The notes under the pieces: generated by a model
Database searches by the model: none
The model's input: the letters and a program-made list of their open reading frames with translations, nothing else
What the model was told of the DNA's origin: nothing
NCBI GenBank assembly: GCA_017537245.1
Contig: JAFYLD010000031.1
Coordinates: 742 to 64,741 of the forward strand
Length of the DNA: 64,000 nucleotides
Direction of reading: 5' to 3'
Source of the DNA: Clostridia bacterium
GTDB taxonomy: Bacteria; Bacillota; Clostridia; Oscillospirales; Acutalibacteraceae
In this document: positions 2,954-51,240 of the stretch, piece after piece
Position numbering within the stretch: the first letter of the stretch is position 1
Layout: each line of letters begins with the position of its first letter
Made by a program: the position numbers and the translations under genes

Positions 2954-3565
2954 TTACTCCATTTCACAAAAAGCACGCAAGATATTTAGTCCTACCTCAC
3001 CGCTTTTTTCGGGATGGAACTGGCATCCCATAACGTTATCTTTTTGTACTGCGGCGGTAAGTTCTTTGCCGTATTCTGCAGTGGCAATTACGCTATCGTC
3101 ACAGTCGCTAGCATAAAACGAATGAACAAAATAAACGCAATCGTCGGGTTTTATGTATTTAAACAAATCACTTTCACGAGTAAAATGCAAAGCATTCCAA
3201 CCAATGTGTGGAATCTTTAAATCACTGGGGATGGTATCTTTCATAGGCACAATACTACCCTTTAAAAGTCCTAGGCCCTCGTGACAACCGTATTCGTAAC
3301 TACGCTCAAAAAGCATCTGCATACCAAGGCATATACCCATAAGTTTTTTGCCTTTTTTAGTTTCGGCAATTATAACCTTATCAAGACCGCTATCGCGAAG
3401 TTTGCGCGCCGCGTCTTCAAAAGCGCCAACACCTGGTAGGATTATTCCATCAGACTCGGCAATTACTTTTGGATCGGCAGTGACGGTAATATCGGCGCCT
3501 ATCTTTTTAAAAGAAGATATAAGCGAAAAAAGGTTACCAACGCCATAATCAACTATCGCTATCAT
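2954..3565 (-). CDS. hisH: imidazole glycerol phosphate synthase, glutamine amidotransferase subunit
   Basis: 203 aa. Class-I GATase: GICLGMQ nucleophile elbow, VHSF and QFHPEKS. Confidence 0.95.
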   Translation of the reverse strand: MIAIVDYGVGNLFSLISSFKKIGADITVTADPKVIAESDGIILPGVGAFEDAARKLRDSGLDKVIIAETKKGKKLMGICLGMQMLFERSYEYGCHEGLGLLKGSIVPMKDTIPSDLKIPHIGWNALHFTRESDLFKYIKPDDCVYFVHSFYASDCDDSVIATAEYGKELTAAVQKDNVMGCQFHPEKSGEVGLNILRAFCEME

Positions 3566-31352: not shown

Positions 31353-31528
31353 AAAAACTCCCCCTTCCCACAAATTTATGCTTAAAATTCATATTTTATT
31401 AACAATAAATTCAAACCACTTTTTGCGAGCATTTAAGAGCATTTGGGCGAAAAATTAAGCAAATCAAAGTTTAACAAAAATTAGCATAAAATTCCTACCA
31501 AAAATTCTACATTTTTTGCAAAATTTAC

Positions 31529-31563
31529 TTGACTTTTTGGGCGTTTCGCCGTATCTTTATAAT
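31529..31563 (+). promoter_or_regulatory. possible promoter for the pot leader (weak geometry)
   Basis: TTGACT (31529-31534). TATAAT (31558-31563) is 23 nt away. The alternative -10, TATCTT (31552-31557), has a 17-nt spacing. Confidence 0.3.
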
Positions 31564-31599
31564 GTTAATATATGCATATAAATATTAATTTAACGCATC

Positions 31600-32046
31600 T
31601 GTGTAGAAAGACGGCCGGTACTAATGTGTGCCGTAGTTCACGTGTAGCGTAGAACTACGAAAAACCCTTTGTCAGGGCATACAAACAAACGGCTGGGGTG
31701 AGGCTGGCGAGTGTCAATACCGTCACGCCTGACAAATAGTAATTTTCTGCCCTACTTGTCTTATCGTTTGCAATACGACAGTATTGCTGCTCTCTTCAAC
31801 TTCGCAGGAACAAAAAATTCCTTATTTAGCAGGTCAAAGAGTTTCTCTCTGTCGCCTTTTTATGAAAGGCGACGCGTGAAATTTGCAGCAAGGCTATCGC
31901 CTTGCAAAAATAAATGCAAGCAAGGCAGGAAAAGGCGACGAGCGAAACCGTAATGGTATTGGCACTCGTCAGCCTCAGCGCAGGGTAAACGTAAAACTTT
32001 ACTACTGTCGACACTTGGGGTGTTTGACAAAGGGGGATGTGGTTAA
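31600..32046 (+). promoter_or_regulatory. long structured 5' leader / candidate cis-regulatory RNA upstream of potA
   Basis: No credible ORF. G+C is visibly above the flanking spacer. Has a 23-bp long-range helix (31699-31721/31955-31977), multiple hairpins, and a segment complementary to the potA SD. Confidence 0.5.
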
Positions 32047-33174
32047 ATGACCAAACAAAATATTATAGAACTAAAAGACATCTTCGTTTCTTTTGGCGAT
32101 GAAAAGGTACTTGACGGACTTAATCTCGATATTCGCGATAAAGAGTTTATCACTCTTCTTGGTCCTTCGGGTTGTGGTAAAACAACCACCTTGCGTATTA
32201 TTGCAGGCTTTTTAGACGCTGATAGTGGCGAGGTTGTTTTTGAAAGTAAAAATATAAATGGTGTGCCATCGTACAAGCGACAGGTTAACACCATTTTTCA
32301 GCGTTATGCGCTTTTTCCTCATCTTAACGTGTACGAAAACGTTGCATTTGGTCTTCGTGTTAAGAAGTTAAAGGAAAACGAAATAAAAGAGATAGTTACC
32401 GAGATGTTGCATCTTGTTAACCTAGACGGTTTTGAAAAGAGAAATATCTCTACCCTTTCCGGCGGTCAGCAGCAACGCGTTGCTATTGCTCGCGCTATTG
32501 CCAACAAGCCAAAGGTGTTGCTACTTGACGAGCCGCTTGCCGCTTTGGACCTAAAGCTTCGCAAAGATATGCAAAAAGAACTTCGTCGTATTCAGCGTCA
32601 GCTTGGTATAACCTTTGTATTCGTTACCCACGACCAAGAAGAAGCTCTTACAATGTCGGACCGCGTTGTTGTAATGAACAAGGGCAAAATTCAACAAATA
32701 GGTACTCCACAAGATATTTACAACGAGCCTGAAAACGCTTTTGTTGCCGACTTTATCGGCGAGTCAAATATTCTTGACGGTATTATGCGCGATGATTTTG
32801 TTGCGGAATTTTCGGGTCACGTGTTTGACTGCCTTGACAAAGGCTTTGACAAAAACGAAAACGTTGACGTTGTTGTTCGTCCTGAGGACGTTGATATTGT
32901 CGCTCCAGAAAAAGGCATGTTAAAAGGTGTTGTTACCTCTGTTGACTTTTTGGGCGTGCATTATGAAATCATCGTTGATATCGGCGGCTTTAAGTGGATG
33001 ATACAAACCACCGACGAGTGTTTTGTTGGTGATAACGTAGGTCTATTTATTGAGCCAGACGCTATTCACATTATGAAAAAATCAGAATATTCTGGTCTTT
33101 ATGGTGACTATAGTACATACAGCGAAGAGATGGAGCATCTTTCGGACGTAGAGTCGGAGGATGACGATGAATAA
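32047..33174 (+). CDS. potA: spermidine/putrescine ABC transporter ATP-binding protein
   Basis: Walker [34 protein letters not shown]-like C-terminal domain and an acidic tail. Confidence 0.9.
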
Positions 33175-33991
33175 AAAAAGTTTTGGTAGCCGTATAGTTG
33201 CGGCGCCCTATATAGTTTGGGCAGCAATTTTTATTATCGTACCACTCGTTATAGTTGCTTACTTTGCATTTACCGACGCAAACGGAGCGTTCGCGCTATC
33301 AAACTTTGCGCAAATCGGTAAATACAAAAAGGCGTTTGGACTATCTATTCTTTACGCCGTTATCGCTACGATAATAACCTTGTTTATCGCCTACCCTATG
33401 GCTTATTTTATGACCAAGCTTAAAATTAGTAATCAACGTATGATAATGATGCTCATTATGCTTCCTATGTGGATGAACTTCCTTATTCGTACCTATTCAT
33501 GGATTACAATTCTTGCAAACACCGGTCTTATAAATAAGTTTTTAACCTGGATAGGCATTGGACAAGTACAACTTATAAACACACCCGGCGCGGTTATACT
33601 TGGTATGGTTTACGACTTTATACCATATATGATTTTGCCAATTTATACCGCTATGTCAAAGATTGATAACTCGCTACTAGAGGCGGCAAGCGACCTTGGT
33701 TCTAACAGCTGGTCACGTATTCGCCGCGTTATTATGCCGTTATCACTACCGGGTGTTATATCGGGCATAACAATGGTATTTGTACCAAGTGTTAGTACCT
33801 TTTACATTTCTCAAAAACTCGGCGGCAACAAAGATATGCTTATTGGTGACGCTATTGAATACCTATTCAACACAGGCTCACAATACTATAACGTTGCGTC
33901 AACCTTGTCGTTAATACTTATGGTGCTAATACTTGTCTGCACCCTTATTATGAATCGCTTTAGCGATGACGAGGAGGCGGTTGTACTATGA
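33161..33991 (+). CDS. potB: spermidine/putrescine ABC transporter permease
   Basis: 6-TM permease with an EAASDLG EAA loop. The alternative ATG at 33167 is better spaced from the GGAGG SD. Confidence 0.85.
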
Positions 33992-34791
33992 AAACACTCT
34001 CTCGTATATATATCGCTTTAATTCTTTTGTTCCTTTACGCGCCTGTTGCGGTTATGATTGTTTTTTCATTTAACTCGGGCGGTAGCGTATGGGTGTTTGA
34101 AGGTTTTTCGCTTGATTGGTACAAGGGTCTTGCTACCAACTCGTCAATGCTTACTGCGCTTCAGCATACATTGATAGTAGCTGTGTTATCGGCAATTATA
34201 TCTACCGTTATGGGTACTGCGGCGTCGGTTGGTATTTTGGCGCTTCGCAAAAAGTTTACCCGCAGAGCAGTAATGTCGGCTACAAATATTCCTATGATGA
34301 ACGCAGATATAGTAACGGGCGTATCGCTTATGCTTTTGTTCGTGTTCGTTGGTAGTTTGTTTGGTCTTAAAGAGTCGCTCGGTTTCTTTACCGTACTTGC
34401 CGCTCACATTACTTTTAACCTGCCTTACGTTATTTTATCGGTTCTTCCTAGACTTCGCGCTACCGATATGAGTCTAAACGAGGCGGCGCTCGACCTTGGT
34501 TGCACACCTGTTAAGGCATTTTTTAAGGTTATTTTACCTTCTATTTCTACCTCGATTTTCACAGGCGCTATAATGGCGTTTACATTGTCGCTAGATGACT
34601 TTGTTATTAGCTATTTTACTTGCGGTCATTATCAGACGTTACCTATCGTAATTTACAATATGACCAAAAAGACGGTATCGCCTGACGTTTATGCCCTTTC
34701 AACAATTATATTCCTTGCGGTGTTTGTATTGCTTATACTTTACAACACCCTTCAAAGCAAGGCAGATTTAAGGAGGGGTATTCGTGCTTAA
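33988..34791 (+). CDS. potC: spermidine/putrescine ABC transporter permease
   Basis: 6-TM permease with an EAALDLG EAA loop. Start overlaps the potB stop. Confidence 0.85.
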   Translation: MKTLSRIYIALILLFLYAPVAVMIVFSFNSGGSVWVFEGFSLDWYKGLATNSSMLTALQHTLIVAVLSAIISTVMGTAASVGILALRKKFTRRAVMSATNIPMMNADIVTGVSLMLLFVFVGSLFGLKESLGFFTVLAAHITFNLPYVILSVLPRLRATDMSLNEAALDLGCTPVKAFFKVILPSISTSIFTGAIMAFTLSLDDFVISYFTCGHYQTLPIVIYNMTKKTVSPDVYALSTIIFLAVFVLLILYNTLQSKADLRRGIRA

Positions 34792-35887
34792 AAAAATATT
34801 TGCAGTATTGCTTTGCCTTACTCTTAGTATTTCACTTTGCGGTTGTGGTTACGAGTATTTTAACCCCGAGCTTGAAGCTAGCTACACAAGTGATTTAGCC
34901 GGCACCGAGCTTAACGTTTATAACTGGGGCGAATACATATCCGACGGCAGCGACGGTTGTATGGACGTTAACCGTGAGTTCGAACGCATTACGGGTATTA
35001 AGGTCAACTACACCACCTTTGAAAGTAATGAAACAATGTATTCCCAGCTTGATAACGGTGGCGTAAGCTACGATATTATCATTCCTTCTGAATATATGAT
35101 AGAGCGTCTTATGTCAGAAAATATGCTCGAAAAGATTGATATTTCAAAGCTTTCTAACTACAAGTACGTTGACACAAGTTATTTTAACCCCGACACAACC
35201 GGTCTTGTTGAAGGCTACGCTATTCCTTACAATGTAGGTATGGTTGGTATTATCTACAATAGCGCGCTTATTGACGAGCCAGAGCATTCGTGGACAGCTT
35301 TGTGGGATGAAAAGTACCGCAATATGTCGCTAAACTTTAATAATCCTCGTGATGGTTTTATGACCGCGCAAATGATTAAGGGTTATAGTGTTAACTCTAC
35401 AAATCTTGCAGAGTGGAACGACGCTTGCGAACTTTTAAAGAGTGGTAAAGACGTTTTGCAGTCCTACGTAATGGACGAAATCTACGGCAAGCTTGAAACC
35501 GGTGAGGCCGCTATTGGTCCTTATTACGCGGGCGACTATCTTGTAATGCAAGAGGTTAACCCCGATCTTAAGTTCTTCTACCCAGAAGAAGGCACAAACA
35601 TTTTTATTGACGCAATTTGTATTCCAAAGTGTGTTAAAAACTATGAGGCGGCGCTACTTTATATCAACTTCCTTTTAGAGCCTGAAATTGCTCTTGCAAA
35701 CGCTGAATATATTGGTTATGCTTCTCCTCACACCGCAGTAATAAATAATCCAGATTATTGCTATTACCAAAACGAAATTCTCTATCCAAAGAAAGAAGAT
35801 ATGCCCAAGGTAGAATATTATCGCAATATTCCCGAAGAGGTGCGTATGCACTACGAAAATCTTTGGCTAGATTTAAAACTTTACTAA
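34784..35887 (+). CDS. potD: spermidine/putrescine-binding lipoprotein
   Basis: Lipobox LSISLCGCG and PotD/PotF-family similarity. GTG start with an AGGAGG SD. Confidence 0.85.
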   Translation: MLKKIFAVLLCLTLSISLCGCGYEYFNPELEASYTSDLAGTELNVYNWGEYISDGSDGCMDVNREFERITGIKVNYTTFESNETMYSQLDNGGVSYDIIIPSEYMIERLMSENMLEKIDISKLSNYKYVDTSYFNPDTTGLVEGYAIPYNVGMVGIIYNSALIDEPEHSWTALWDEKYRNMSLNFNNPRDGFMTAQMIKGYSVNSTNLAEWNDACELLKSGKDVLQSYVMDEIYGKLETGEAAIGPYYAGDYLVMQEVNPDLKFFYPEEGTNIFIDAICIPKCVKNYEAALLYINFLLEPEIALANAEYIGYASPHTAVINNPDYCYYQNEILYPKKEDMPKVEYYRNIPEEVRMHYENLWLDLKLY

Positions 35888-51100: not shown

Positions 51101-51240
51101 TAGCCTGTATATTTGGTCGTGCGAATGGGCGGGTCCTATACGGCGGGAGGCTGTGAACCATGTCAGGCGGGGAACCGAGCAGCATTAAGCAGTTTTTTCC
51201 GTGCGAATAGTAAATCGGTCCATTCGTACGACCAAGCATA
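51101..51240 (+). ncRNA. ffs: signal recognition particle RNA (small, 4.5S-like); ends approximate
   Basis: Domain IV signature GUCAGG-CGG-GGAA-CCG-AGCAGC (51162-51183, GGAA tetraloop at 51171-51174). 16-bp closing helix 51113-51128/51220-51235. Conserved position upstream of dnaX-ybaB-recR. Confidence 0.75.

Follow-up and report, generated by a model that had tools for sequence, protein, structure and literature searches.

A conserved riboswitch-like RNA, probably a control element of translation initiation, in the potABCD leader of gut and rumen Clostridia

The 5' leader of potABCD, an operon for polyamine import, was analysed in a 64,000-nt stretch of DNA from a Clostridia bacterium of the Acutalibacteraceae (GenBank assembly GCA_017537245.1, contig JAFYLD010000031.1, positions 742 to 64,741; hereafter the window) and compared with the leaders of related bacteria. 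It is likely that a conserved cis-regulatory RNA of about 185 nt lies in the leader and clamps the Shine-Dalgarno (SD) sequence of potA, and that the parts of a large insertion present in the window copy are not needed for this. The RNA can be regarded as a new riboswitch-like leader that probably controls translation initiation. It is built of covarying helices, it is linked exclusively to potA, and its thermodynamically favoured fold is one in which the SD is closed. The features that make up the RNA in the window, together with the operon, are as follows.

32047-35887, + strand: potABCD operon (ATPase, two permeases, substrate-binding protein), with NCBIfam matches to the PotA, PotB, PotC and PotD models; the potA open reading frame is 32047-33174 (+) and matches PotA models.
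32030-32037, + strand: SD AAGGGGGA, 10 nt ahead of the potA ATG (32047).
31594-31600, + strand: P0 5' strand CGCAUCU, pairing with 32035-32041; GCAUCU is invariant in all copies.
31612-31617, + strand: P2 5' strand CGGCCG, pairing with 31690-31695; all 5 of the 5 modelled pairs show compensatory changes.
31626-31632, + strand: P3 5' strand GUGUGCC, pairing with 31676-31682; compensatory changes at 7 of 7 pairs.
31633-31658, + strand: P4 hairpin GUAGUUC ... GAACUAC (31633-39 with 31652-58) with a variable loop; compensatory changes at 7 of 7 pairs.
31665-31674, + strand: anti-SD strand CCCUUUGUCA, pairing with 32025-32034, on the 3' side of the P3/P4 internal loop and preceded by a conserved GAAAAA.
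31676-31682, + strand: P3 3' strand GGCAUAC, partner of 31626-31632.
31690-31695, + strand: P2 3' strand CGGCUG, followed by the conserved GGGGU of junction J2/1.
31978-32009, + strand: P5, a long local hairpin GCGCAGGGUAAA ... UUUACUACUGUC with a variable tip; compensatory changes at 7 of 13 pairs.
32010-32024, + strand: P6, a short hairpin GACAC-UUGGG-GUGUU directly 5' of the SD strand, as seen in the sequence.
32025-32034, + strand: pseudoknot 3' strand UGACAAAGGG, overlapping the SD.
32035-32041, + strand: P0 3' strand GGAUGUG, directly adjoining the pseudoknot strand.

In the proposed mechanism three stacked helices, P2-P3-P4, would make up an arm, and the internal loop that separates P3 from P4 would contain the anti-SD strand CCCUUUGUCA. 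The SD strand follows P5 and P6; its first 10 nt would pair with the anti-SD as a pseudoknot across P2 and P3, the next 7 nt would pair with the invariant 5' end of the motif to give P0, and the 17 double-stranded nt thereby laid over the SD should block binding of the 30S subunit. A ligand, most plausibly spermidine or putrescine and possibly a protein, would tune the stability of the pseudoknotted fold, so that polyamine import would be subject to translational feedback repression. In the window, junction J2/1 of the motif contains a strain-variable, structured insertion of 278 nt.

The comparison was based on a PotA scan of a genome collection, which gave 80 loci, all from Acutalibacteraceae, Oscillospiraceae or related Clostridia and all from gut and rumen metagenome-assembled genomes. 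With a first covariance model, based on 23 short-form leaders, the motif was recognised in about 64 of the 80 potA loci; it was also confirmed in about 40 of 71 metagenome contigs that had been retrieved by a gene-independent pattern. Every copy found, in genome loci and metagenome contigs alike, sits directly upstream of a potA homologue. A second covariance model, which has the final nested structure, gave an alignment of 75 copies comprising 73 distinct sequences. In these 73 sequences 93.4% of the cells of the nested P0/P2/P3/P4/P5 structure are paired and compensatory changes are seen at 26 of the 38 pairs; the covariation score is 0.42 as compared with 0.157 in shuffles (reached by 0 of 500) and with 0.06-0.07 when the partners are slid against each other. 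P5, which in relatives lacking the insertion starts with UCG and ends with CGA, varies in length from 27 to 76 nt, and independent minimum-energy folding joins its first and last nucleotides in 51 of 57 distinct versions. Its mean duplex energy is -11.6 kcal/mol for native strands as compared with -8.0 kcal/mol for strands combined across groups. The two strands of P5 were also considered as halves of a long-range alternative helix, and this was ruled out as both are strands of one local hairpin.

The anti-SD strand is complementary to the SD region at 10 of 10 positions (CCCTTTGTCA, 31665-31674, with TGACAAAGGG, 32025-32034), as the original prediction, made from the letters of the window, had stated, and the SD and start codon also lie where that prediction placed them. 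When the upstream leader was put through 2000 dinucleotide shuffles, 9 of them contained a perfect complement to the SD region of at least 10 nt. The pairing is conserved in about 100 potA leaders of gut bacteria of the Acutalibacteraceae and occurs in three compensatory variants, GUCA/UGAC, GUUC/GAAC and GCGG/CCGC. In an anchor-registered alignment of 62 leaders, comprising 36 distinct rows, the variants in the distal pairs read CCCUUUGUCA/UGACAAAGGG (the group of the window), CCCUUUGUUC/GAACAAAGGG and CUCUUUGCGG/CCGCAAAGGG. Over the distinct rows one variable pair is UA in 21, CG in 14 and UG in 1, a second is GC in 14, CG in 11 and UA in 11, and a third is GC in 14, CG in 11, AU in 6 and something else in 5; at two of the three there is not a single unpaired cell. 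The covariation score was reached by none of 500 shuffles, and the mean duplex energy is -15.6 kcal/mol for native strands and -9.9 kcal/mol for cross-group combinations. The wobble pairs are U.G on the + strand only, and this fixes the transcribed strand. Sequestration of the SD by a distal strand, the central element of the original prediction, is therefore real, conserved and covarying. The accompanying suggestion that the 10-bp helix nests around the large domain is too simple, as the helix crosses the covarying P2 and P3: the anti-SD lies in the P3/P4 internal loop and the SD strand lies 3' of P2, so that the helix is by its sequence arrangement a pseudoknot.

The closing helix P0 extends this pairing. 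Its 3' strand has the consensus GGAUGY just past the SD, as partner of the invariant GCAUCU, and in the 73 distinct sequences P0 is 99.5% paired (GC 67, GU 4). The duplex energy of P0 is -9.4 kcal/mol. The next pair outward is variable (AU 9, CG 8, GU 3, unpaired 16). Two distant strands thus pair with all of the 17 contiguous nt at 32025-32041, a stretch that includes the SD and stops 5 nt short of the AUG. In a subgroup of leaders (L031, L034, L053, L070, L035, L038 and L043; about 2995-3015) an extra G lengthens P0 to CGCAUCU/GGAUGCG; here the sequence after the SD reads GGAUGCGCU(A)AUGAAAAGCG, and the start codon is found in the loop of a small GCGCU/AGCG hairpin.

No terminator-like site was found on the + strand of the leader by a site scan, which agrees with what had been noted before. 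Because the leader is without a terminator, control at translation initiation, as originally suggested, is a reasonable reading. Minimum-energy folding had been put forward as a check on the leader, and for the whole 491 nt it gave a fold far more stable than those of dinucleotide shuffles (z = -9.2). Open reading frames within the leader (e.g., 31711-31953) were dismissed since the region is missing or far shorter in relatives.

The short form L004 was used for the energetics of the motif. Its minimum-energy fold, at -55.8 kcal/mol, includes P0, P4 and P5 along with the anti-SD helix, whereas the nested fold supported by covariation has -38.9 kcal/mol, to which the pseudoknot duplex would add about -17.9 kcal/mol. 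An alternative with open SD, in which the 5' strand of the motif pairs with the 5' strand of P5 and P6 is extended, has -30.5 kcal/mol. These energies indicate that the default state is SD-closed. The alternative fold is the basis of another explanation, i.e., a conserved two-state switch with partners other than those originally proposed, where an ON state has AUCUGUG paired with CRCAGGGU of the P5 5' strand, P6 extended over UGAC and the SD open, and an OFF state has P0, the pseudoknot and a full P5. Such a switch is possible, although unlikely in our judgement. The complementarities it requires are present in all groups, and L016-type leaders have an extra U in the 5' strand (GCAUCUUGUG) that matches GAGCAAGAU, so that both pairings are kept. 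The lower stem of P6, a possible GUCG/UGAC pairing that would be in competition with the base of P5 and the distal pairs of the anti-SD helix, tracks the SD-proximal variants in the CCGC group (GCGG/CCGC, native -8.7 as compared with -5.4 kcal/mol). Taken over all groups P6 is weakly better in its native combinations (-7.4 as compared with -6.0 kcal/mol cross-group), an advantage which is clear in the CCGC group and absent in the UGAC group to which the window belongs. The 5' strand of the motif is on the other hand near-invariant, so that its pairing with P5 (P1) shows no real covariation, and the native energy of P1 hardly differs from the cross-group energy (-10.0 and -9.3 kcal/mol, respectively). 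The SD-open state is also at least 8 kcal/mol less stable even before the pseudoknot is counted.

Natural deletion variants bear on the same question. Three were noted: L010 (2870-3007), L015 (2874-3007) and L056 (2967-3010). L010 and L015 have kept the 5' strand, P2-P4, the anti-SD and the SD and have lost J2/1, P5 and P6, and L056 retains nothing but the P6 3' strand and the SD. What L010 and L015 retain thus appears to be the core of the motif, and their lack of P5 and P6 also counts against the two-state switch.

A number of observations weigh against the SD-clamping RNA as the likely explanation. The motif is missing from about 16 of the 80 related potA loci, whose leaders are short. The 6-bp core of P0 is invariant and thus offers no compensatory change, and P0 has the support of its conservation, one change from G-C to G.U, a variable extension pair and nothing else. 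The minimum-energy fold gives up P2 and P3 in favour of the anti-SD helix, and it is conceivable that the pseudoknot and P2/P3 are alternatives that do not exist simultaneously. The 17-bp clamp is so stable that it is hard to see how it would open without a further factor, and the leader RNA has no known ligand or binding partner. Finally, the insertion in the window replaces three near-invariant junction nucleotides, so the window copy itself may be altered or impaired.

The insertion also holds the second partner that had been proposed for the anti-SD strand. Its features in the window are the following.

31700-31977, + strand: inserted structured module of about 278 nt (boundaries +/-2 nt), replacing AUC of the otherwise near-invariant GGGUAUCG.
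31728-31738, + strand: 5' strand of module arm 1, the CCUGACAAA region, CCUG-AC-AAAUA, pairing with UAUUU-AG-CAGG at 31823-31833.
31823-31833, + strand: 3' strand of module arm 1, UAUUUAGCAGG, from sequence comparison, duplex energy and the 5-copy consensus fold.

In the closest relatives (L001-L004, L007 and L073, with PotA 93-97% identical) the leader matches 31560-31699 and 31978-32060 of the window and the 278 nt between are absent; the relatives read GGGGT-ATC-GCGCAGGG where the window reads GGGGT-(GAGGCTGG...CAGCCTCA)-GCGCAGGG. Among contigs with 100% identical PotA, L081-L084 have the insertion and L085 has the short form, showing that the insertion is polymorphic within one species. 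A module remnant of 46 nt (about 2882-2927) is found in L005 at the same site as in the window. Homologous copies occur at another site, inside P6 just 5' of the SD, in L099 (about 185 nt, 1234-1418, - strand) and, at a length of about 280 nt, in L102 (418-697), L136 (7234-7513, - strand), L095 and L123; the homology by blastn has E = 1.6e-7 over 148 nt and includes in addition a 5' block of 35 nt with 86% identity. The consensus fold of 5 copies, aligned with the tips of a variable arm swapped for a short linker, has 67 pairs of which 26 show compensatory changes. In this fold the two termini make a long base stem; arm 1 (CCUG...CAGG) is short and variable at its tip, and arm 2 is long and has conserved internal loops. 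In the window a stretch of the module (31851-31873 and 31930-31939) can form either of two pairings, GUCGCCUUU with the adjacent AAAGGCGAC as a window-specific hairpin or with the distal AAAAGGCGAC; it is the distal pairing that is conserved with compensation in L099 and L102.

The base stem of the module is a long imperfect helix with arms of 35 nt (31693-31727 and 31949-31983) that are 83% complementary. It corresponds to the "23-bp helix" of the original prediction; the helix is present, only it belongs to the insertion and lies outside the conserved mechanism. The second complementarity is likewise there, 9 of 9 between TTTGTCAGG (31668-31676) and CCTGACAAA (31728-31736). From it an explanation had been drawn in which the anti-SD strand swaps between the SD (32025-32034, OFF) and CCUGACAAA (31728-31736, ON), with the large domain as a decoy, and this must now be considered very improbable. 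It is true that the match is uncommon by chance, with a complement of at least 9 nt to the anti-SD region in 29 of 2000 shuffles of the inserted domain, that the duplex would be fairly stable (-13.6 kcal/mol), that 31728-31736 is unchanged in a 95% identical allele (L083) and that L099 has a weaker match of 4+4 bp with a bulge. The segment is, however, part of an insertion which neither the nearest relatives nor a conspecific contig possess, and it serves as the 5' strand of a stem that every copy of the insertion retains: CCUG and CAGG of arm 1 are paired in 5 of 5 aligned copies, as CCUG-ACAACGG-CAGG closing a 7-nt loop in L099 and as CCUGAUAUUC/GAAUAUCAGG in L102, and arm 1 has a duplex energy of -10.0 kcal/mol in the window. 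Complementarity to the host anti-SD is not kept in L099 and L102. In L102 only 5 nt (UCAGG/CCUGA) can still pair, and in L099 the host has the GUUC/GAAC variant while the module still has GACAA, so that there is no co-evolution with the host. Pairing of the anti-SD with the module would further require a melted base stem or a pseudoknot crossed three times, and the SD helix is the stronger of the two (-17.9 kcal/mol). Lack of conservation or covariation of the three segments had been named as what would refute the prediction; 31665-31674 and 32025-32034 are conserved and covary, and 31728-31736 alone fails the check. Because the insertion is absent from the closest relatives and from L085, the second partner CCUGACAAA and the long helix, both internal parts of the insertion, are not needed for the conserved mechanism, i.e., clamping of the SD by the leader RNA.

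The nature of the module is less clear, and a mobile element and an accessory regulatory domain are both candidates. Like a miniature inverted-repeat transposable element (MITE) it is discrete and polymorphic between strains, has inverted-repeat ends that form a long stem (the 35-nt arms in the window, CAGGCTGGCG and CGCCAGCCTG in L099) and has homologous copies at different sites. In contrast to a MITE, it has no target-site duplication at its junctions, with 3-5 host nucleotides being replaced per insertion, and its internal helices covary as in a functional RNA. A search for further copies, which covered the 64-kb window and 1.09 Mb of loci, gave none beyond the potA leaders. No match to the module was found in Rfam, including for the insert-bearing L099 and L102, or to plasmids and phages by blastn, and of 113 pattern hits to its core blocks in viral contigs none were homologous by blastn. 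The module is preceded by U and ends with G, as for a group-I intron. This candidate was rejected: Rfam gives no intron match, one end pairs with the other, and ligation as predicted would yield a product without conserved host nucleotides.

A comparison with known RNAs gave no counterpart of the leader motif. When the window, its leader, L004, L031, L099, L102 and 37 whole loci were scanned against Rfam 15 (E <= 10 for the window leader, L004 and L031, gathering score for the 37 loci), only signal recognition particle (SRP) RNA and tRNAs were found. A literature search returned no description of a potA leader motif, only the spermidine riboswitch derived from SAM-I and the ldcC and potE candidates. 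SAM-II, SAM-V, preQ1-II and preQ1-III are translational riboswitches that have the SD inside the aptamer pseudoknot. The potA leader resembles them in having a conserved anti-SD within a structured domain, an SD pseudoknot and no terminator, in being located in cis to functionally coherent genes and in that control at the level of the 30S subunit is expected. It differs from them in showing no similarity in sequence or by covariance model, in being much larger (about 185 nt and five helices) and in that the SD is clamped by both an anti-SD in an internal loop and the 5' end, i.e., a composite helix of 17 nt.

Of polyamine-sensing riboswitches only one class has been validated, the spermidine riboswitch, a rare SAM-I variant which has the SAM-I four-way-junction fold and controls biosynthesis genes by transcription termination (Salvail et al., 2023; PMC10853860). 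A link to polyamine homeostasis is common to that class and the potA leader, and an OFF logic would be expected for both. The potA leader, on the other hand, has no match to SAM-I in the Rfam scans and no terminator, serves a transporter operon and has a linear P2-P3-P4 arm with a pseudoknot in place of the four-way junction. The closest named candidate is the ldcC motif, a cis-regulatory candidate of Firmicutes described as a hairpin with a bulge and a possible pseudoknot of invariant nucleotides, located upstream of decarboxylase and PotA genes (Weinberg et al., 2017; PMC5737381). The potA leader resembles this description in its link to PotA and in P3/P4 together with the loop that holds the anti-SD. 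The Rfam model of ldcC gave no match at E <= 10 in the window leader, L004 and L031, or at gathering score in the 37 loci. Also, the potA-leader pseudoknot varies and covaries and is linked to potA only, whereas the possible pseudoknot of ldcC is described as invariant.

The ligand and the direction of the response follow less directly from these data. It is tempting to speculate that the leader represents a new class of polyamine-sensing (spermidine or putrescine) translational OFF riboswitch for PotABCD, and that the module of 190-280 nt is a mobile or modular piece that plugs into tolerant loops and may modulate the response. This full scenario is tentative and, taken as a whole, rather doubtful. 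An unlikely alternative is that the structure is not a small-molecule riboswitch at all and instead is a site for a protein or another trans factor, or a constitutive translation damper or stability element. This would agree with the lack of a known ligand and with a fold that is very stable on its own, and conserved repeats of GAG(C/T)ATTT upstream of the promoters hint at additional transcriptional control. Covarying helices, conserved junctions, gene association and an embedded SD are established features by which riboswitches are nominated, and the size of the potA leader, its several covarying helices, its highly conserved junction nucleotides, its link to a single operon and its embedded SD are of this kind and speak against a protein site or damper; no candidate RNA-binding protein gene is linked to the leader in the window. 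Polyamine-sensing riboswitches have long been predicted. The motif, which covaries well and occurs solely with the principal importer of polyamines in a large family of Clostridia from gut and rumen, is a directly testable candidate for a second, transporter-linked polyamine riboswitch class, and the long (window) and short (L085) alleles within one species provide a natural comparison for the effect of the module.

Upstream of the motif a promoter-like site was found by consensus scan.

31529-31557, + strand: promoter-like site TTGACT, 17-nt spacer, TATCTT.

It is by this site alone that the presumed start of potA transcription is placed; judged by eye, related loci have a TTGACW / 17 nt / TATNNT layout some 35-45 nt ahead of the motif. 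The -35 element is preceded by tandem GAG(C/T)ATTT boxes (31427-31434 and 31437-31444), which often have the form AAAACGAGCATTTAAGAGTATTT. In many loci (e.g., L002, L004, L040, L057 and L063) similar boxes precede the potA promoter by 90-150 nt. They are found even where the leader motif is absent, and from their sequence and arrangement they may be a transcription-factor binding array for the potABCD operon. Between the putative transcription start and the motif there is an AT-rich palindromic stretch (31566-31592), which may be a 5' stabiliser hairpin; in other loci (e.g., L008, L020, L042 and L060) the equivalent site is occupied by an unrelated small hairpin. Elsewhere in the window, at 51127-51224 (+), is a bacterial small SRP RNA (Rfam RF00169, 58.9 bits).

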